The notes under the pieces: generated by a model
What the model was told of the DNA's origin: nothing
Seen by the model: only the letters and a program-made list of their open reading frames with translations
The model's database searches: none
Assembly: GCF_041146345.1 (NCBI RefSeq)
Contig: NW_027191404.1
Location: 1,302,001-1,366,000, forward strand
From: Neodothiora populina
Taxonomy: Eukaryota
DNA: 64,000 bases
Direction of reading: 5' to 3'
Shown here: in pieces, positions 18,909-53,900 of the stretch
How the letters are laid out: each line of letters opens with the position of its first letter
Numbering within the stretch: position 1 is the stretch's first letter
Translations under genes and position numbers: made by a program

Positions 18909-19628
18909 TCATTCTTCCCTTCTGGCAAAAGCTTTTGCCTTTCTTCGTCTGGCAGCCGTCTGAGGAGTCCAGATACCGAGAAATAGTTCTTCGCACTCAT
19001 TTTCGTCTTCGCTGTCGAATTCAATCTGGCTCTGATCAATTGAATCCTTGGGAAATGGATCAGTCTCTCGAGCGATTGTGTTATCGTCACCTTCCCAGCA
19101 ATTATTCCGGCATATGCGTTTGGTCTCCAGGATGAATTTACCGACTTTGTAGCGTTGGCTCTCTTCTTCGGCGGCAACATACTTCCAGCCAAGCATGCTA
19201 CCGCATTGCGAACAGCTGATGTCGCTGACTGTGTGTGCGCCTGTCACTAGATTCCTGGCAACAGGCTTGTGTGTGTGCGTATTTGGCAGATCTGGCAATC
19301 TCCCATACCTCGAGCCTCTGCTAAGAGCTACATTTTCGAGTTGTCTTGGAGGAGCTACGAGATAGGCACGACCATGCCGTCCGGTGAAACCTTTGGAGAT
19401 TATCTGGTCTGCCAGAGCTAAATCTGCAAGGCAGCGAGAGCAACGAATGGCTGATGAGTGGCCTGTCAAGAATGTTTGAGGGTTGCTAGACGAGATTGTG
19501 CTGTCAGCCGTCCCAGAGCTGGACGCTGAAGTACTGGAGTCAGTGCTTGACTTTCGACGTCCGAATGGCAGTGATTGTGTAAGGTAAGTGGGAAATAAGT
19601 CAATTGGTGAAGGGATGGAGAGACGCAT
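18909..19628 (-). CDS. Yippee/Mis18 zinc-binding protein
   Basis: CSRC...IISKGFTGRHGRAYL and LVTGAHTVSDISCSQC.SMLGWKY...QRYKVGKFILE. Confidence 0.9.
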   Translation of the reverse strand: MRLSIPSPIDLFPTYLTQSLPFGRRKSSTDSSTSASSSGTADSTISSSNPQTFLTGHSSAIRCSRCLADLALADQIISKGFTGRHGRAYLVAPPRQLENVALSRGSRYGRLPDLPNTHTHKPVARNLVTGAHTVSDISCSQCGSMLGWKYVAAEEESQRYKVGKFILETKRICRNNCWEGDDNTIARETDPFPKDSIDQSQIEFDSEDENECEELFLGIWTPQTAARRRKAKAFARREE

Positions 19629-20453
19629 TTCTTCGATTAGTGAGGTGGCGGCACACACAACCTCCAGGCGAGAAGCTACAAGACACAATCGCGTTGTCTA
19701 GGTAGTGGTGCGAATGGATCACTACTGGACTTTCAATGTGTCGCCACTGAGAGCATCCCACTCTCACTCTCATTATAAATGAGTTGAGACATCAAGACGA
19801 GTAGGCAGACAAGTAACTCGAAGGGAGGGGTAGAACGGCTGGGCCACCCATACTGCTGGCTTATCAGTCACCTCATCATTAGGTAGCCAATATTTATCTC
19901 TGATGCTTAGGTGCAATGTCTGCAACGTCCTCGTGACCACTAACGAGTCTTGGAGCTTCATGTCCAATCCTACCTCATGTAAGGATGATTGCATTGCCCC
20001 GCACATGCTATGCCCCTCAGCTGGCATGTGATTTCGATCTCACCTTATCTGTTCTGCCAACACCACAAGCATACCTTACCTTATATACGATATTCATCCC
20101 CTGTATACCTGTCAAACGCGCTAATATCAAGTCCATGAAAGATAACCTATAGTGTATACAACTCGAGCCAGAGAAAGCTAGCGAGGCTAGTAAGATGTTG
20201 CTGCACTACTGCGATCGTATAGCATTCGAATTGTTGTATTCGTAATGTGGACGGTAGGTGGCAGGTCACTTTATGATGAACCTCAGATGACAGTCGGTCG
20301 CTCTTTCTACTTCTGATCGCGTGTTATGCCTTTCTGTCCAGCAAATCTATAGAAGCCCATAAGTTCTCTCGTTCACTTCTCTAGACGAGGCGTTGCTTAT
20401 CACCAACTTCAAGGTTGTCTTATCCCCATCATTAAAACATACAGCTTCATGCG

Positions 20454-23400
20454 ATGAGAGCTTCCAACTCAGTCAAGAGAAATGAGTCTTTTTCAAACCA
20501 CATTCATTCACCAGTGCAGCGTCAAAAGGTCCATTTTGGGGAGAGTTTCGAAAGCGAACAGCTCATCATCGCACCACATTCATATGCAGACAAGACAAAA
20601 CCTACCACCATAGAAGCACTATCACCTACAGCCAAACTTCAGCGAAAACCCAGCCGACTTATTGCCAAGCTACACCATCACCGAGGTATGTTCTGTTTCG
20701 TTGTCCGCGGATTGGTAGCTCTAATATCGCCTTCGTCAGATGAGTTAGAACCTCTGATACAACGAGGCTCTCACAAATCACCGAGTCCAACTACTAAACT
20801 AAAGAAGTTACAACGGCTCTTGAAGCCTCCAGGCTCTATCTATGTTCCACGCAAAGCCGTCCACTTTGACGGCTCACCCGAGGCTTCCCCAGAATCTAAC
20901 GCACATGAAGGCTCGGAGTCACTCAACTCTGGTTTGCCCGAGGCCAGTTTCTTTGCACCTTCTTCCCCATCCTTCCTACTGCGAACCTCGAGGACAAGTC
21001 ATGCAGCACACAGCATCACATCTCTGGCTGATATGAATGGTGGTAGTACTTTCCTTCCGTCGGCCATCGCCACAATCATACACCGGCCGAACGAAAAGGC
21101 CCAGCCAGTGGTATTGCACCTGGATACGGACACTGGCAACCCCCCAAAGAGCTTCCATGAACATGGGTCGGCGGTGATATCCCATGGTAACTCTTCTATA
21201 CCCTCCGAGTATGATAAGAACCTCAGTGCAAGTCCGATCAGCAAGGCATCAACAGGCAAAACGTCTTTTTACCTGAGTGGAAACTCTTTTGGATCTCAGA
21301 AATCAGTTGAGATGAAGACTGCGCTCGATCAGTCCCACTCTCTGAATCGAAATCTTCTTTCATGTACAGAAGAGTTGGCCCCGATCGAAGAATCTGGGGT
21401 CCGCTTGATAAAAATTCCTTGTGTTGAGGCATCACTCACTTTCAAGCCAACAGTGGTAACCGTCGAATCCGCCACAGCCGCCAAGGTGTTCTTTGAGACA
21501 CACTTCAATTCGCTCCTGTCAGATCCAGTGTCTCCTCGTACAGCACGTCGCTGCAGATTACAACAGAGACTATAGGAAATGTCGCTCAACATCGAAGATC
21601 GAGAACGGGCTTACCAACGATGGAACCAAGCCGAGAGTGATCATTTACGACAGATTCGTGTCTTAAAGAGCACATCGCTTGCAAGACACGCTGCAAAAGG
21701 AATTTCTATTGCAGGTTATGAGTCCGTCCGGGTCCTTGGTAAAGGAAGCTTCGGTGTGGTCAGACTGGTGAGGGAGAAACCTGTCGTAACCCCACTTTCG
21801 GATCCTGTGAAATATGCTTCAGATGGAACTTTGGAGGGTCAGCAACATGAGACCGACTTGGGTATACAGAGCAGTTACTCGAAGGACGTCTACGCGATGA
21901 AAGTCATTCGCAAATCAGAGATGCTGCGAAGCTGCCAAGAAGGTCATCTTCGCGCAGAACGGGATCTCCTGGTCGCGAGTGAAGGTTCCCGCTGGGTAGT
22001 GCCACTGATCGCTAGTTTCCAGGACAATACAAATCTCTATCTTGTCATGGAATACATGGTTGGTGGCGACTTCCTCGGAATGCTTCTGCGAGAGGACATG
22101 CTGGATGAATGGGTTACGAGATGGTATATTGCTGAGATGATTTTGTGCATCGAGGAGGCCCACAAGATGAACTGGATCCATCGCGATATCAAGCCTGACA
22201 ATTTTCTTATCAGCCCTTCTGGTCACCTCAAGATCTCGGATTTTGGCCTGGCGTTTGATGGGCATTGGTCGCATAGCCAGTCATACTACTCTGGACATCG
22301 CTACACACTTCTCGAGAAGCTCGGGATTTCGGTCCAGGGAGACGAAGAAGATGTGGAAGAAGCAAAGTGCAAGGACACACGTTCGACATCCAAGCCCACC
22401 TCTACAGGGAAGACCGGAAAACGTAGAAATGATGCTGATGACGGTGCAAGACGAGAGGGCCTTCTCAATTGGCGCGATCGAACTGAGCGCAAGAGACTCG
22501 CGAAGAGTATCGTCGGTACAAGCCAGTACATGGCACCAGAAGTCATACAAGGTCGAGAGTATGATGGACGATGTGATTGGTGGAGTATTGGAATTATTCT
22601 ATATGAGGTGCAATAACCTCTCACTTCACGTCTGAATAGACACTGACTAGATACAGTGCTTGTACGGCATGACGCCGTTCTTCTGCGAAAACCGACAGCG
22701 TACCAAAGACAACATTTTGGTAAGCTCTGAGTAGAGATACGATCGATATTTGGAGCTGACATTGCAGAATCACCGGGCTACCTTGGAGTTTCCTGACCAC
22801 GAGCGATGGTCAAGACCCAGCAGTGACTCAAGGAGGCGATTGCCACCTGTTGGTAACGTAGTGATTGACCTGATCAGTAGTCTGCTTCAGGCCAAAGAGA
22901 TGCGCTTGAGCTCAAGGGTGTACCGTGTTCACGACTTTCGCACGGGGAGGCGCGTGGGGTCCGCACCTGCATTGCAGGGGCTCATTGGCAGACACGTCTA
23001 TCCTAACGGGGCCGAGGAGATCAAGGCTCATCCATTCTTCTCGGGCATTCCATGGGATCAGATGCATTTGACTCGCCCTCCTTTCATTCCGAATGTACGT
23101 GAACATCAATCTATCACCAAATACTTTGAAGAAGAGCATGATATTGTGACGGACGATTCCTCAAGCTACACCAGCATGAAAGACAATGTCGACTCCACAG
23201 CTTCAGAGACCCAGATCAAGGATTTTATGGGCCACCATTATGACAAGTGGAGAGCAGAGCGAAGGAGACGGGAAAAGGCGGAACTGGGCTTACACGAGTA
23301 CCCCGATGATCAGTATGAGGTTCTCAAGGACAGGATGGGCCATCGCTTCGAGCATTTTCGAGCTCAGCGAATCTTGGAAGTGCGCCGATCGCAGCTCAAC

Positions 23401-23643
23401 AAAGGCATCGACCCTGACGCTGCGCTTGCAGCCACGACCAACAAGAAGCCGAAGGAAATGAAGAGACCAAGGGACAAGATGTTGAGGGATCCAGATATTG
23501 CAAAGGTGGTCATGAAGCTGAGGAAGAAAGGAGCATTCTTGGGGTATACCTATCGCAGACCTACGCCGTTTCCTGTGGATGAAGCGATGTGCAGGGGAAG
23601 GGTGGCCTGTTCGAGGCCTAGTATTATCCCTGTGAAGCCTTGA
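20454..23643 (+). CDS. AGC/NDR-family Ser/Thr kinase (Cbk1-related, PUK1/stk-21-like); introns 20686-20739, 22608-22656, 22720-22767; in-frame TAG at 21573-21575
   Basis: LGKGSFGVV, YAMKVIRK, QEGHLRAERD, HRDIKPDN, DFGL, SIVGTSQYMAPE, CDWWS, C-terminal RPRDKMLRD...AFLGYTY. The upstream segment TVESATAAKVFFETHFN is in the same frame across a single stop. Confidence 0.85.
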
Positions 23644-24076
23644 TTGTGTACAGTCGAGGTCACTTCGTTTCAATACTACCTGCGTTTTCTCTTCTTTGAA
23701 TGGTTGTGATGACTTTCGTGTTCGTATCGTAGGCTTCAAACTCTCAAAGCTGATGTGGAAATATTGGAATATATACGTACGAGCAGATGCGTGGGGTGAA
23801 TGTATAGAATGAAGTAGCCAATATCAGTCTATCAAGCATGAAACCCATCTATAGAAGCGAACAAGATTAATCAAACATATAGTTTCATATTCGGAAACGT
23901 TACCTTCCTCGGACCTTCCAGCTCTTGAAACAGCGTTCCAAGGTAGAAGAGAAAAAACAAATGGATATTCGATTCATATAAGCAACCAGAACAACGCCGT
24001 CCCCTCCCCTCGCCTACCCTCCGAGGCCTATACTTTCGCGGAGCTGTCGTATAGGCATATCATCCCACTCCCCCGG

Positions 24077-35398: not shown

Positions 35399-38300
35399 AT
35401 GGCAGACCACGACGAGGAGGATCTGTTCGCTGACCTGTAGGCGTTTTCTGAATCATACCATCCTCGCCTGAGCGCACTTCTGACGAGCTCTACAGGTACG
35501 AGAACGAAGATGCAGCACCCGCAGCTCCCGCCCCTGCTACCACTGCACAACCCGCCGCGGCTGCCCCTCAACCGGAACCTGCAGTCACTGCACAAGACAA
35601 CTCTGCCGCCCAGCAGGCACATTCTGTCCCTTCTGAGGCTATAGCAAATGGCTCCAACGACTACGGCGCGTACGATCAAACCCAGCAGGACACAGCCCAT
35701 GATGATTTACAGTATGACGGTGCACAACAACACCAAGACTACGACTATAACAATGGCCATGACCAAGGAAACGGCCAGGTTGCCGCACAACAGCACCAGG
35801 AAGAAGATTACAAGCCTATCGGCATAAAAGAAGACGGGTAAGTCCTGCAACCTTTTCTTGTCAACTTTCGAGCCATCCGCCTTCGAGGTAAGCAAGTCAA
35901 CACGATCCAGGCGAACCTGGGCACGGAGCCTACAGCCCAACATCGCCGAGGCTGTTGCCGTTGTCGAACAGGTGTAAGGTTCACATTATGAATGTAGCAA
36001 GCCTTTCAGACTACTGGGGTTTTGCGAGTCGTCTGCGGCGGCACTATTCACTCTCTAGGGACGCGTTCCTTGACACAAACGAGAAGCAAGAAAGCGGTAA
36101 AAAGATCATTGAATCATGCTCGCAAGTATATGTCACGGAAGGAAAAGAGACGTTTGGGATGAAGCGTTACACCTCCTATGGGTCATTGACCACTAGCGAG
36201 AGGCTACTCAAGCATATTTCATATCAAGATATTGGCCTGGATACATCAGATGCACGGTGGAATTTTTGGAAAAAAAAAGATTGGACATCTATGGGCTACA
36301 TATACGCCGTAGTGGTCCGTGTCCGTCAGACATTCGCGACCTCTCTGAGCTGGGAACTACAGAGCTCGCGAGCATCGCCCATAGCCATTTAGCTTCATGT
36401 CGATAACTCTTCATAGAGCTTAGCTAAAGCATGGAATCGAAGCTGCCGCTATGCCATTGCAACGACCTAGTCCCACTGCGTTGCTTCAAGCAATCGTGGA
36501 ATTTATTCCTCTCGACAATACTCGACTTGCTTGACATCGTGGGGCTGTCAGACGTGCCTGCTTCTTTCTTGGCACTGCCTTTGGAAGATTCAGACCGCAT
36601 GTGCGCTTTCCTGGTTGGCTTTCATATTTGTTGTCACCATCGCCTTCGCCATCATCAACATGGTCGGTCTGGAGAGAGACTACAGGCAATCGCCTTTGGA
36701 CAGTCCATTGGGCATCCCTACGAGTATTTCACGCGTAGACGTGGCCAGAGACCTGGCACTGTTTGTGTTGAACAGACGCGAGTTCATAAGCTGCGGTACT
36801 CCCGCTGCGATGCTCAAGCAACTGATCAGATACTGAAGACTTGCGTGTTACTATTAACCTCAATGGAGGCTGGATGGCTCTATTCTTGACTGACTACTAT
36901 TGTTACTGATGGTGTTAAAAATTATGCTAATATAAATCGCACCATAGCAAAATGTTTATTGGAGGTCTAAACTGGGAAACCACCGACCGTGAGTGTGATA
37001 CCTGACTTGATGTATATTTTGCTGCAGCTGCTAACCATGAGTGTCGCATAGAATCTCTCCGCGATTACTTCTCGCAATTTGGCGAGGTTGTTGAGTGTAC
37101 CGTGATGCGCGATGGCGCCACCGGTCGTTCACGTGGATTCGGCTTTCTGACCTTCAGAGATCCCAAGACTGTCAACATCGTCATGGTCAAGGAACATCAA
37201 CTTGACGGCAAAATTGTAAGCGGAACAGTCAAAAACTGCAGGTAAAGTGTATCTACTAATGTAAGGACTCCAGATCGACCCGAAGCGTGCGATTCCCCGC
37301 GACGAGCAGGAGCGCACCAGCAAGATTTTCGTTGGCGGTGTCAGCCAGGAAGCAACTGAGCAAGACTTCAAAAACTTTTTTATGCAGTTCGGCCGCGTCC
37401 TGGACGCTACGCTTATGATGGACAAGGACACTGGCCGCCCTCGTGGCTTTGGGTTTGTCACTTTCGACAGTGAAGCTGCTGTTGACCGTACCCTTGAGCG
37501 ACCCCTTGAGATTCTTGGCAAGTACATTGAGGTCAAGAAGGCACAACCGCGTGGCAATATCCGCGATGATGACGACAGCCGAGGTGGTCGGTTCAACAAG
37601 CATAACAAGTTCAACCCGAATGCAGGCGCTCAGAGTGGCGGAGGTTTCGACAATTCTGGTATGAGCGGCGGTCAAAATCCTGCTGCCATGGGCGGCGCCA
37701 ACCAGGGAATGAGCCCTGCGATGATGGCCCAGTACTGGCAGCGCATGCAGCAGTACTTCCAGATGATGCAGCAGCAGATGGCAGCCGCGAACATGGGCGG
37801 TGGTGGTGGTATGAACCCCATGAGCAATCCTGCCATGATGCAGCAGATGATGGCAATGCAGCAGCAACAAGGAGGTAACGGTCCTGCCGGCGGCATGAAC
37901 CCCGCCATGATGCAACAAATGCAGCAGATGCAGCAGATGCAGCAGATGCAACAACAGCAGCAGCAGATGCAGCAACAGCAACAGCAACAGCAGGGCAGCC
38001 AAGGCAACGTGCCTAGCGGTCCGGCGTCAGCATCTCCCATGAACGGTGGACCAGGTGCGCGACCAGGCTACACGGCTCAAGAGCAGATGGCATTCGAGCA
38101 GCAGAAGTACGAGCGGCAGCAGGTCACTCGCGGTGGCGGTGGTCCGGGCAGCGCTACCTCCTGGGAAGGCATGTACGATGAAGTCCCCGCTCCGGGAGGG
38201 AATGGCATGGGTGGCGGCGGCGGCGGCGGCGGTCGTGGTGGCTTTGGTGGCAGAGGTCGTGGTCGTGGTGGTGGCAGCCAGACTCCTCAACCTCAGGGCA

Positions 38301-41127: not shown

Positions 41128-43079
41128 ATGGCTGCTGCATTTCGACGGCAAGAGAGCAATGCCATTCCCTCTTCGAGTCCGGCTTTCGGCACCCCGGTTC
41201 ATCCCATCAGACCACGAGATCAACGACCGCCGATTCCTCCTCCCGTCTTCAAACCCGCTGTCTCGACCATCCTCCCAATCCTACTGCCTCCGCCGTCGTT
41301 GCGACCACTGGCCTTCCGCACGTTCACGAAAAAGCACAACCTCACCCTGAGCTCACCGGCGTTGCAGTCTCTGGCGACGTTCGTCGGGCGCCATTGTGGA
41401 TCGGGATGGCGAGAAGAAGGCACGGCCGAAAAGGTTCTCGATGAGGTGGCCAAGACGTGGAAGAGAAGCGGCGGTGCATTGATTGTGGAAGACGGGCCAT
41501 TGATGAGAAACATCCTCAAAACACTGGAAGGATGCATGAGTGGCGGCAAGATGGTGCCACAGAAGGCTTCTGCGGGCACACCACTGAGTCGACAGAGCAG
41601 CTTCGCTTTCGGGGCAGGAGACAGTCAGGAGTCCGGAGACGGCGCGATAAGACCGACTCTGGATCACCAGAGCAGCAGTTTTGGTCTCTCTGGCTTGCAA
41701 GTGGAAGAAACAGACGAGGAAGAACTCGAGACACAGGATCCTCGCTCGTGGCTCAAGGTTGTCTCTGCATTCGAGCAGCCACGATTGTACTACGACACTC
41801 AGAAGAGACAGTTCGAGACGATCGCAGCCAAACCCTCCTTGTTGCCTCCGCCGTCACATAAAACACTTGTCTTCCGTGACCGCTACAACATCGTCTATCA
41901 ACGCCTCATGCGATCCGAGGCATTCCAACAACCCTCGGTCAATATCCTTTCGAGACGCTCGCTTGGTCGAGCAGACAGCACCTCACTCCAACAGTACTAC
42001 AAAATCACGCCCATTGCCAATCTACTGGGTCGGAATGGTTCCTCTCATGTCTTGCTGGGTATGTTAGTCGTCACCCCTACTGGAACACTAGCATTAAACG
42101 ATCTGACCGGAGGCATCACCCTGGATCTTCAACACGCAAAGCCTATGCGCGGCGAAGACAGCGCTTGGTTTTGTCCCGGTATGGTCATTCTCATCGAGGG
42201 CGTCTACGAGGAAGAATATGGTGGAGCTGGTTCGTCGGGACTGGGTCAGACGAGCGGCGTGGGAGGCACAATTGGTGGCAAGTTTATTGGGTTCATGATC
42301 TCAGGACCCCCATCGGAACGAAGGTACCAAAGCCTAGGCATCGCCGAAGTCAAAAACGAAGACCTGACCATGGGAGGAGGATTCGGCTGGACCGATTTTC
42401 TTGGTCTGGGGAGTGAGAAGGCGTTGGGAAGCAAGATGAGACGACTCGAACAACGCTTACTCGCGCCCACCGAGTCTACGACAATTACTCGCAATCTGGC
42501 GGAGCGAAAGAAGGCGGTCATCATGAGTGAAGTGAATCTAGACGACCCATCCGCCCTCGAGGCCCTGCGTTCAATCTTGAAACTTTACTCTGCACCATCC
42601 GAAGCCGACCAGATCCCTGTCTCGTTCATCGTCATTGGCAACTTTGTCTCCCATCCCGTCATGGCAGGAGGCGGTAGCGGAGGAAGCATAGACTACAAAG
42701 AATACTTCAACGATCTTGCCGCTGTCCTCATCGACTTCCCTGCCTTACTAAGAAACTCGACCTGGGTATTCGTGCCTGGCGACAACGACCCCTGGCCCTC
42801 TGCATTTTCTGCAGGAGCAAGCACGCCCATCCCAAGAGGCGAAGTCCCGTCATTATTCACAACAAGAGTCAAGCGCGCCTTCGCCGCCGCCAAAGCCGAG
42901 GTCGGAGTCCGAGACAGAAGCAGCGGCAGCGTCGACGGCGAAGTCATCTGGACATCCAACCCAGCACGAGTGACATTATTCGGCTCCGCCCACGAGATCG
43001 TGGTGTTCCGAGACGACATCTCGGGCCGAATGAAGCGAAGCGCCATCACCTACGGACAGGCCAACCGGAACCCAGACGA

Positions 43080-50941: not shown

Positions 50942-53900
50942 ATGTCTTCGCCGCCGCAGAATCGCTACCAGCGCTCTTCACCGCCGGGCTCGCCCAATCG
51001 GGCTCGACAGAACACAGACGGGCTCCCGAGCAGTCCAATGCAGGCAGATTCTGGCCCAGACGAACAATTACAGGCTGAAGCATCGCAAGAATCGCAGAAC
51101 TCGCTGCAAGTGCCTGGCGCAGAGACCCCGCGCGCGCATGCCAATGGCACTTCCCAAGACACTTCACAGATCCCTCCCACGTCATCGCCGCTGTTCTTCC
51201 GCTCGTCGTCGGCAGCGCCTGCAGGTGTGAACATCAGCTCTCCTCTGCGAGAACAGTCGATAGCTCCCAGTGATGATGGTGCTACTCCTCGTGCCTCTGG
51301 CCAGACTATCGGAGATTCTTCTCCAATCAGATACGCATCGAGTTCGAGCGCAGCACCTACTCCTCGCACCGGTGGTAACAGGACAGACCAGATCAGAAGT
51401 GAAAGCAGTGGTCTTTTTGTTCGTTCGCCTCTCAATGTACCCTCTGCAGCCATCAACAGGCGGCACGACATCGACTCAGACATCCTCTCGAGCAACGGTC
51501 GACGGAGGAGACTCTTTGTTGATGAGAGCGGTAGACCTGTGCGAGAGGACCACTCCGATGCTGCTACCTTTTCGAATCTCAACCCCAACACCTCAGAAGC
51601 GAATGCGCTGGGTGGGAACTCTACCAAGATCGTCTGGGGTACGAACATCAGTGTTTCCGACGCTACGTCAAAAGCTGCAGACTTTTATCGCAACTTCCAA
51701 CGAAAGTACCGTATGCTGCTGGATGAAGAAATCGAGTCGACTCGCAATCTGCCTGCCGACCATGTAGGTAATGAGAGACCATACGCCGAGGTCATGAGTG
51801 CGATGCTCGACTTTGGCACTGTGAACCTCAATCTCGACATGCAGGACGTCAAGTCATACCCGCCCACGCAGAAGCTCTGGTACCAGGTTCAGAATTTCCC
51901 CGCCGAACTCATGTCTGTATTTGACCAGGCATTGAAGGACGTCATGTATGAGATCGCGGAGAAGCGCATGGCTGATATGCGCGCTCAACAACAATCCACC
52001 GCCGGCGCGACCGATACCAGAATGAGAGACAACAGTTCCGTGCCACCTGTGCCGAGTTCAGACATCGATGCAACCCCGAGACGCCAGCCCGATGCAGTCG
52101 ACATTCCAGATCTTCTCAGTGAGGTGGAATCAAGGAGCTACAAGATCAGGCCCTTTGGCCTAGACAAGACTATCAACTTGAGAGACCTCAACCCCGGTGA
52201 CATGGACAAGATGGTCAGTGTCAAGGGTCTCGTCATTAGAACAACGCCCATCATTCCCGACATGAAATCTGCCTTCTTCAGATGCTCCGTCTGTCATCAC
52301 ACTGTGCAGGTCGACATTGACAGAGGCAAGATCGCCGAGCCTACCATCTGCCCTCGCCAAGTGTGCGCTTCTCCCAACTCCATGCAGATTGTACACAACC
52401 GTTGCAGCTTTGCAAACAAGCAGGTCATCAAGCTTCAAGAAACCCCAGACAACGTTCCGGATGGACAAACACCGCATTCCGTGTCACTCTGCGCCTATGA
52501 TGATCTTGTCGACGTGTGCAAGGCCGGTGACCGTGTGGAAATCACCGGTATCTTCAAGTGTAACCAAGTCCGCATCAACCCCCGCCAAAGGTCAGTCAAG
52601 AACATCTTCAAGACATACGTGGACTGCGTGTTTATCCGCAAAACCGATAAGCGACGCATGGGTATCGACGTCTCCACGCTCGACGAGCAGCTCTCGGAAC
52701 AAGCCACCGGAGGCAGGGAAGAGGTTCGCAAAATCAGCGAAGAGGACGAAGCCAAGATCAAGGAGGTCGCCGCTCGACCGGACGTGTATGACCTCCTCTC
52801 CAGATCTCTAGCTCCGAGTATCTGGGAGATGGACGACGTCAAGAAGGGCATCTTGCTTCAACTTTTCGGAGGCACTAACAAGTCATTCGAGAAGGGTGGT
52901 AGCCCCAAGTATCGTGGTGACATCAATGTCCTGTTGTGTGGTGATCCCTCCACCTCCAAATCGCAACTGCTCTCGTATGTACATAGGATTGCACCACGCG
53001 GAATCTACACCAGTGGCAAGGGATCCTCGGCTGTTGGTTTGACAGCATACATCTCTCGGGACCCTGAGACTCGGCAACTCGTTCTCGAATCTGGAGCCTT
53101 GGTCCTGTCTGACGGCGGTGTTTGTTGCATCGACGAGTTCGATAAGATGTCTGACTCGACTCGCTCGGTATTGCACGAAGTCATGGAGCAGCAGACGGTA
53201 TCTATTGCCAAAGCCGGCATCATCACAACACTGAATGCAAGAACGAGCATCCTTGCTTCAGCCAATCCCATTGGCAGCAAGTATAATCCTAACCTACCTG
53301 TACCGGCAAATATCGATCTACCGCCAACCTTGCTCTCACGTTTCGATCTTGTCTACCTCGTCCTTGATCGAATTGACGAGACGACTGATCGTAGATTGGC
53401 GAGACATTTGGTGGGCATGTACCTTGAAGACACCCCCGAGAACGCCAGCGCCAGTGAAATATTGGTAGGTAGCAACAGGCTTGTAATTCTGATAAGACCA
53501 AACTAACAAATTGTCTCAACAGCCAATCGAGTTCCTGACAGCCTACATCTCCTACGCCCGCAGCAACTGTCACCCCAAGATCAGCGAGGAAGCAAGCGAA
53601 GCTCTCGTGTCGTCGTATGTCGCCATGCGCGCCCTAGGAGCGGACATCCGCGCCGCAGATCGTCGTATCACCGCCACGACGCGTCAACTAGAGTCCATGA
53701 TCCGACTCGCCGAAGCCCACGCAAAGATGCGTCTCAGCGAGATCGTGACAGCAGACGACGTGCACGAAGCCGTGCGACTGATCCAGAGTGCGCTCAAGCA
53801 AGCAGCCACGGACGCGCGCACCGGCCTACTCGACATGGGTCTCCTGACAGAAGGCACGAGCGCCAGCGAACGCAGACGCAAGTCTGACCTCAAAGACGCC

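Follow-up and report, generated by a model that had tools for sequence, protein, structure and literature searches.

Whether a premature stop codon in a fungal gene marks a lost function or a codon that is restored by editing of the messenger RNA (mRNA) is the question raised by a 64,000-nucleotide stretch of the Neodothiora populina genome (contig NW_027191404.1 of assembly GCF_041146345.1, positions 1,302,001 to 1,366,000 of the forward strand). In this stretch, hereafter termed the window and numbered from its first letter, a TAG at 21573-21575 interrupts a gene for a protein kinase of the NDR family. This TAG is a real nonsense codon of the genome, lying in the N. populina orthologue of the NDR kinase stk-21/PUK1, and we regard it, with a probability of roughly 0.5, as a young loss-of-function allele, that is, a plain knockout. 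An earlier note on this DNA, made from the sequence alone, had proposed instead that the stop is a candidate for A-to-I editing; a plain nonsense allele is more likely. Regardless, a transcribed UAG in a Dothideomycete orthologue of the gene where fungal editing was discovered bears on which fungal classes edit.

An in-frame TAG in genome and transcript

The site reads CAA CAG AGA CTA TAG GAA ATG TCG, which places the candidate edited A at 21574. The stop-to-stop frames on its two sides, 20436-21575 (379 codons) and 21576-22616 (346 codons), share one frame, and removal of three introns yields a coding sequence (CDS) of 3039 nt in four exons, made up of 1012 codons and a TGA stop, wherein the TAG is codon 356 and the sole lesion. 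The sequence and a frame scan agree with the earlier note on the presence of a TAG between open reading frames (ORFs) in the same frame; its further statement that the gene carries no other lesion holds for the spliced CDS, which is interrupted by the TAG alone.

Three public sequencing runs containing the stretch (X1 to X3), none of them on record as RNA, were compared over 20400-23700. X1 is a DNA run with a word depth of 33.6 and no differences from the window, and holds only the intron-containing form; it may be the assembly's own source and hence is not independent. X2 comes from the same sample as X1 and is labelled 'DNA?'. One of its contigs, 3036 nt long (depth 9.56), keeps the TAG and lacks three stretches bounded by GT..AG (54, 49 and 48 nt long); it is otherwise unbroken over 20535-23700, with no other letters changed and no gaps. 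A second X2 contig (depth 3.8) covers 20400-20541 and continues upstream. Because three introns are joined in one molecule, while X1 has the intron-containing form only, we infer that the 3036-nt contig is complementary DNA (cDNA) despite the label of its run.

The mRNA takes in the entire upstream frame, with transcription beginning upstream of the first ATG, and in the sampled material it is correctly spliced at the three introns, its UAG unedited at the consensus level. No A>G was present at 21574 at the consensus level in this single cDNA contig, whose growth stage is unknown and which, as contigs do, drops minor variants. The earlier note had suggested looking for the TAG in reads and for splicing of 21528-21575. 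The TAG is present in the X1 DNA contig as well as in the X2 intron-less contig, and the whole of 21528-21575 is retained in the latter rather than spliced out. As the TAG stands in the genomic contig and is unchanged in the intron-less one, assembly error and splicing over the stop are effectively excluded.

X3 carries another organism label and belongs to another study. Its 504-nt contig (depth 453) equals the window over its first 181 nt (21551-21731, including the TAG) and is unlike it thereafter, the first 20 of the loose letters having no match in the window at up to 3 mismatches. X3 also has a 198-nt contig (22415-22612) with one difference, and covers just 4 of 30 bins. The 504-nt contig could be a chimera, carry-over or a second carrier of the TAG allele.

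The gene and its product are laid out below. Intron boundaries are given after the cut of the read placement had been shifted, and the motifs are those of the translated CDS.

20454-20685, + strand: exon 1; the first ATG of the open frame is at 20454, and the exon-intron joint is supported by the X2 intron-less contig
20686-20739, + strand: intron 1, 54 nt, GTATGT..CAG, CTAAT at 20721; skipped in X2
20740-22607, + strand: exon 2, with the disordered N-terminal region, the N-terminal regulatory region, the in-frame TAG and most of the kinase domain
21459-21662, + strand: pre-kinase N-terminal regulatory region, TVESATAAKVFFETHF ... HLRQIRV, homologous to the Cbk1 N-terminal region; the TAG lies inside it
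21573-21575, + strand: in-frame TAG, codon 356 of 1012, with the candidate edited A at 21574
21579-21581, + strand: ATG of the public model, start of the 655-aa protein P0002 (residues 358-1012)
21717-23055, + strand: kinase domain with NDR-type insert (Pfam Pkinase), split by introns 2 and 3; the start at 21717 is a manual count on the translation
21735-21755, + strand: kinase motif LGKGSFG
22179-22202, + strand: kinase motif HRDIKPDN
22239-22247, + strand: kinase motif DFG
22515-22541, + strand: kinase motif GTSQYMAPE
22572-22586, + strand: kinase motif CDWWS
22608-22656, + strand: intron 2, 49 nt, GTGCAA..CAG, CTGAC at 22643; skipped in X2
22720-22767, + strand: intron 3, 48 nt, GTAAGC..CAG, CTGAC at 22756; skipped in X2
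22768-23643, + strand: exon 4, with the end of the kinase domain, the C-terminal tail and the natural stop TGA
23464-23490, + strand: tail motif RPRDKMLRD, conserved in orthologues
23533-23559, + strand: tail motif AFLGYTYRR, conserved in orthologues

Removal of the TAG by an unrecognised intron was considered and rejected. The earlier note had taken a 48-nt stretch, 21528-21575, to be the only frame-preserving candidate; in fact, 140 GT..AG spans of 40-400 nt contain the TAG and preserve the frame. None of the 140 has a CTRAY motif. The note was right that the 48-nt candidate has no branch motif and costs conserved sequence: it contains no CTRAY, and it would delete P69, R70, R73 and R74, four residues with 90% or higher conservation across 30 aligned rows. 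As described above, X2 keeps this stretch.

A six-frame scan of the window found four stops with at least 120 open codons on each side, and just one of them is a TAG. The other three are a TAA at 53504-53506 and TGAs at 41442-41444 and 38027-38029; they stand at the end of a long ORF or within frames overlapping longer ORFs, and look like chance. The arrangement is thus rare in the window, and use of TAG as a sense codon was ruled out, 21573-21575 being its one TAG flanked by two long open frames.

A protein search scored 7999 matches, 4591 of them at E <= 0.001, and the best 120 were used. The best, 100% identical, is a 655-aa 'hypothetical protein AAFC00_001138 [Neodothiora populina]' (P0002), which corresponds exactly to residues 358-1012 of the 1012-codon CDS and starts at the ATG at 21579, three bases past the TAG. 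The public model leaves the upstream 355 codons (20454-21572), transcribed and conserved, unannotated. A search of shorter proteins (554 at E <= 1e-20 among 2399 candidates; the best 53% identical) returned no N. populina fragments and no protein of the upstream frame, and among the listed protein matches there is no near-identical read-through form, the public 655-aa model aside. Most simply, the public start marks the longest open frame left after the stop; the model from ATG 21579 is thus an annotation work-around for a broken 1012-codon gene, edited or not.

An NDR kinase of the stk-21/PUK1 group

Judged from its sequence, the gene product is an NDR-family AGC kinase with a predicted Mob-binding N-terminal region. 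It matches Pfam Pkinase (1.5e-41), and LGKGSFG, HRDIKPDN, DFG and GTSQYMAPE are all present. The solved structures closest to the single sequence are those of human NDR1/STK38 (6bxi, 2.2e-55) and yeast Cbk1 (4lqp/4lqs, 1.3e-54), with ROCK behind at 2e-40; a profile of 120 family members reaches E 3.5e-86 against Cbk1. In the pre-kinase region, where the alignment of the single sequence to Cbk1 is weak (i-Evalue 0.033), positions 204-312 of the profile align to Cbk1 chain residues 31-126 (4lqs/5ncl; i-Evalue 2.9e-06), and the family profile reads TvE.aaaaKvffEthF...spRslRrreLe.kl...seee....r.ew..aEsehLRqtRv. We take Cbk1 residues 31-126 to be the two-helix arm that binds the Mob co-activator; the alignment alone was computed. 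The TAG falls between the two halves of this regulatory arm, and a product starting from M358 would lose the first half.

The insert between subdomains VII and VIII spans ~95 residues (DFG at 578-580, APE at 676-678) and gives a gapped alignment to the Cbk1 insert. The activation-segment SIVGTSQYMAPE is present in the window protein, and the C-terminal AFLGYTYRR, at residues 977-985, is kept in the aligned orthologues; the hydrophobic motif of NDR kinases is defined as F-x-x-Y/F-T-Y/F-K/R. Yeast Cbk1 and human NDR1/STK38 are therefore alike to the window protein in the kinase match, the pre-kinase region, the long DFG-APE insert and the F-x-G-Y-T-Y-R motif. In contrast to both, the window protein is a fungal paralogue of its own, ~1000 aa in length and with a long, disordered N-terminus.

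The literature on this group, as on editing and on the host below, is cited from partial texts of the sources. N. crassa NCU03242 (stk-21) is classed as AGC/NDR, beside cot-1 and dbf-2, with AN10485 as the Aspergillus nidulans orthologue (PMC3591445 Table 1); A. nidulans lists CotA and An-Stk21 as distinct genes (PMC3591445). PUK1 (FGRRES_01058) has two tandem UAGs in the kinase domain that are edited to UGG in perithecia. NCU03242 has the first of these two UAGs and Fusarium verticillioides the second, and the PUK1 orthologues of Magnaporthe oryzae and Claviceps paspali have a genomic G at the site (PMC4817773).

With P0002 as the query, an exhaustive search yielded 545,062 proteins at E <= 0.001, 2968 of them at <= 1e-30; the best 150 were used, with names for 10. 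The named matches include a Gaeumannomyces protein of 973 aa (P0173) and proteins of Penicilliopsis, Kalaharituber and Aureobasidium uvarum. P0173 is 49% identical over residues 17-629 of P0002, and among the 120 relatives listed in a search with P0173 the named ones are nearly all from Sordariomycetes or Leotiomycetes, including a protein of Pyricularia oryzae and a 908-aa N. crassa protein. In a 14-row alignment, the window protein is collinear from the N-terminal TVE.AAAK...ET to the C-terminal RPRDK.LRD...AF.GYT.RR tail.

In the same alignment, the gene models of N. crassa and of two Sordaria species have a gap exactly over GRCDWWS, and those of Claviceps africana and Purpureocillium takamizusanense have shorter gaps over GRCDWW(S) (the gapped models are P0304, P0195, P0314, P0392 and P0381 of alignment A3). 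These gaps suggest that annotation steps over in-frame stops at the PUK1/stk-21 site in these species. Since the gap fits the site described in PMC4817773, the aligned N. crassa protein is taken, on indirect evidence, as the stop-bearing stk-21. The case from alignment that the window gene belongs to the stk-21/PUK1 group is good, though indirect, and the full-length collinearity with Sordariomycete members agrees with the earlier description of a PUK1/stk-21-like NDR kinase.

CDWWS is encoded by TGT GAT TGG TGG AGT at 22572-22586, the WW codons being TGG TGG at 22578-22583, as the earlier note had seen. The window stop is therefore at a different, independent site from that of PUK1. The window gene shares with PUK1 and stk-21 its kinase group, the N- and C-terminal motifs and a lone in-frame UAG in an otherwise intact gene. 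However, its stop is at codon 356, in the pre-kinase regulatory region and not at the WW of CDWWS; further, its host is a Dothideomycete, and no edited RNA is seen in the X2 contig.

The A. uvarum orthologue (P0166) is 38-46% identical, which is below the orthologues of other orders, and no first regulatory helix can be recognised in it, which points to fast evolution of the gene there or to a faulty gene model. Aureobasidium, a yeast-like Dothideomycete genus, presumably belongs to the same order as Neodothiora.

Knockout or editable codon

What stood at codon 356 before the stop was approached by aligning the window protein with 119 of the 120 listed matches, P0002, the window's own protein, being left out. 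The stop column in these orthologues holds F in 40, E in 23, A in 11, S in 8, C and N in 7 each, L in 5, W and R in 4 each, Y, G, V and D in 2 each, and I and K in 1 each, 15 residues in all, which suggests that the position tolerates almost any residue. In a quick maximum-likelihood tree of the window protein and 38 of the 119 (421 columns, the stop column removed), the window protein falls in a 7-row clade with 98% support, in which it, P0008 (Arg) and the P0003/P0004 pair (Trp in each) branch from an unresolved fork; the three sister rows carry Leu, Leu and Ser. The nearest by path among the matches listed are P0003 (0.53) and P0004 (0.55), and the nearest relatives are ~74% identical in protein. 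Because the P0003 and P0004 proteins read past ...ILYEV into what is intron 2 in the window, and were thus called on genomic DNA, their Trp is genomic. The alignment of orthologues suggested by the earlier note therefore gives Trp in the two nearest relatives at a site that is highly variable among the 119 listed orthologues. That Trp is ancestral at the site is plausible from the alignment and tree, but not assured.

The simplest origin of the TAG would be one substitution in a Trp codon such as the nearest relatives carry; codons for Leu, Ser and Arg likewise lie a single step away. Ribosomes would stop after residue 355, inside the predicted Mob-binding N-terminal region, and under the sampled conditions a kinase-less N-terminal fragment would be made, with little or no full-length kinase. 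Such a knockout would be tolerated, the kinase being dispensable outside sexual development where tested and the fungus having shown no fruiting bodies on its cankers. PUK1 is required for ascospore formation and release, and an N. crassa stk-21 deletion crossed to wild type has no obvious defect (PMC4817773). The An-Stk21 (AN10485) deletion is viable, without a phenotype entry (PMC3591445 Table 1). N. populina (Dothideomycetes) was described from stem cankers of Populus tremuloides (PMC8375349). It is the agent of aspen running canker; the cankers showed no fungal fruiting bodies, and the part of the source at hand reports no sexual morph (PMC8032200). The knockout reading is favoured because it takes one base change, loss of the gene is tolerated elsewhere, the fungus has not been seen to fruit and its class has no reported editing. 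The window gene resembles ordinary strain-specific nonsense alleles in having one base change and no other decay while still being transcribed, and nothing distinguishes it from them beyond the gene identity and the kind of stop.

Several observations count against a plain knockout. The gene shows no decay: the window's end branch measures 0.26 against 0.21-0.30 for its sisters (median 0.22), and among the columns on which at least 95% of the other rows agree, counted from 60 residues ahead of the stop through to the end of exon 2, the window protein is changed in only 2 of 154, where the median row has 1 of 153 and the window ranks 92 of 120. One of the two departures, E>Q, lies four residues ahead of the stop; the other, A>T, is in the kinase domain. 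No catalytic or regulatory motif is missing, and the gene is transcribed and spliced. With no decay outside the stop, the stop must be either very young or compensated, the gene in the latter case still being under selection. Further, that the TAG is an editable kind of stop, that the two nearest relatives have Trp and that the gene is an orthologue of the founding example of editing-restored pseudogenes would suit restorative editing as well. Editing that is partial, or confined to a growth stage other than that of the cDNA, would not show in these contigs. Finally, if the X3 contig is independent, the TAG allele is not private to one culture.

An origin of the TAG by repeat-induced point (RIP)-type mutation was set aside, since the gene has one change rather than clustered transitions and keeps its conserved columns.

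The strongest rival to a knockout is restorative A-to-I editing, in which a deaminase of the sexual stage would convert A21574 to inosine, so that the UAG is read as UGG (Trp) and full-length kinase is made only then. The UAG is real and lies in an otherwise intact, transcribed orthologue of PUK1/stk-21, and the complete absence of decay speaks for editing as well. The two nearest relatives have a genomic Trp, and the site is tolerant (15 residues in the 119 listed orthologues). In F. graminearum, 71 pseudogenes with restorative editing ('PSC' genes) are known, and their premature TAGs come mainly from TGG; transcripts of some PSC genes occur in hyphae, and no function has been detected for the truncated proteins that arise without editing (PMC10776026). 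The window gene is like the PSC genes in having a premature TAG in a conserved gene, Trp in close relatives and stop-bearing transcripts in what may be vegetative material. In contrast, PSC genes are defined by editing observed in perithecia and their stops arose within Sordariomycetes, whereas no editing is observed for the window gene, the sole cDNA contig having TAG and no A>G.

The known distribution of editing is also at odds with this proposal. A 2024 review names Pyronema confluens as the only species with reported editing that is not a Sordariomycete. In A. nidulans and Botrytis no editing was found, and which classes of filamentous ascomycetes (Pezizomycotina) edit mRNA was described in 2024 as still to be determined (PMC11156358). 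Tad2-Tad3 requires Ame1, and the Ame1-Tad3 interaction arose in Sordariomycetes; the Sclerotinia orthologue cannot replace it, and editing in Pyronema probably has an independent origin (PMC11087585). A full-text search found no report of editing in Dothideomycetes; the papers that it returned mention the class only in comparative contexts. On the other side, the classes that edit are stated to be an open matter, and the independent origin in Pyronema makes further origins conceivable.

The sequence around the site gives a divided answer. Fusarium editing favours U at -1 (86%) and A or G at +1 (76%), with slight enrichment of U at -2, G at -3, G at +2 and A or G at +3 and +4, and 62% of the sites, more among highly edited ones, lie in hairpin loops in folds of ±30 nt (PMC4817773). 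The context here is U(-3) A(-2) U(-1) A G(+1) G(+2) A(+3) A(+4). The statement of the earlier note that the context fits holds for the G at +2 and the A at +3 and +4, and fails for the A at -2 and the U at -3; the U at -1 and G at +1 are uninformative because they are fixed by every UAG codon. In the ±30-nt fold, A21574 is unpaired between two small helices, outside any hairpin loop. The minimum free energy is -6.5 kcal/mol against a shuffle mean of -9.6 (z +1.38), and 188 of 200 shuffles fold at least as well. Boltzmann sampling puts the probability of a hairpin loop at 0.78 for ±20, 0.04-0.05 for ±30, 0.70 for ±40 and 0.01 for ±50 nt, with a weak 10-nt loop at ±20 and ±40 nt, and 10 of 15 UAG or UAA triplets (any frame, 20800-22550) score at least as high at ±30 nt. 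The predicted structures argue mildly against editing, and do so in a manner unstable with flank length; the hairpin loop is a tendency among Fusarium sites, not a rule.

Taken with a host for which no sexual morph is reported in the source portion cited above and an ancestral state that is ambiguous (Arg in P0008 beside the Trp pair), these points make editing at A21574 unlikely. The earlier proposal thus stands as regards a real, unspliced stop in an intact gene, its orthology and the Trp of the nearest relatives; it is weakened by the missing A>G, the weak context, the missing hairpin and an Ame1-Tad3 basis of editing that arose in Sordariomycetes. The alternatives named beside it were apt. 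Sequencing error and splicing are ruled out, and a nonsense allele, re-initiation and readthrough are still to be weighed. As the TAG kind of stop, the Trp relatives and the gene identity cost the null reading something, editing stays a live minority possibility.

It is accordingly doubtful that Neodothiora (Dothideales) restores stk-21/PUK1 by a stage-specific UAG-to-UGG editing that arose independently in the predicted Mob-binding region. If it does, restorative stop-codon editing would for the first time be known beyond Sordariomycetes and Pezizomycetes, and fungal mRNA editing would have either a third origin or a wider spread than has been noticed. It would further point to a recurrent selective advantage in keeping the stk-21/PUK1 kinase off outside sex, and both the origin of the editing system and the selection for premature stops in stk-21/PUK1 would need revisiting. 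If the site is not edited, the locus amounts to a young knockout of the ordinary sort, affecting a sex-related kinase in a species that has not been seen fruiting. On present evidence, a premature stop in an stk-21/PUK1-type kinase is a further instance of a kind already known.

A less likely proposal than editing is that the truncated 655-aa kinase is functional, made from ATG 21579 through an internal transcript start or re-initiation. This ATG stands three nt past the TAG with a purine at -3, the 655 codons downstream and both of their introns are intact and conserved, and the public model starts there. However, the cDNA contig is continuous from 20535 across the stop and a further contig reaches to at least 20400 (a start inside the gene would not be visible in contigs). 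Re-initiation that follows a long frame is inefficient, and the 16 ATGs upstream (counted from 20400) together with the 355-codon frame would make scanning or re-initiation so. Such a product would also lose the first half of the predicted Mob-binding region, a region conserved in the 119 listed relatives.

It is improbable that low-level readthrough of the UAG gives enough full-length kinase, even at a position accepting almost any residue. The high variability of the site and the maintenance of the rest of the gene would suit it. CAR-YYA is a type of readthrough context, and basal readthrough is usually well under a few per cent; here the stop is followed by GAA AUG, not by a CAR-YYA context, no stable downstream structure is predicted, and the stop bears no mark of a programmed event.

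An artefact, be it an error of assembly or sequencing or an unrecognised intron, is very hard to credit: full coverage of the site comes from X1 and X2 alone, which share a sample, and the data of X1 may be the assembly's own, but X1 (depth 33.6) and X2 (depth 9.56) agree on the TAG, the X3 fragment has it too and X2 keeps 21528-21575.

The upstream neighbour

Upstream of the kinase gene, 18909-19697 on the minus strand holds a 262-codon open frame with paired C-x-x-C motifs. Its product is reminiscent of Yippee-type zinc-binding proteins.

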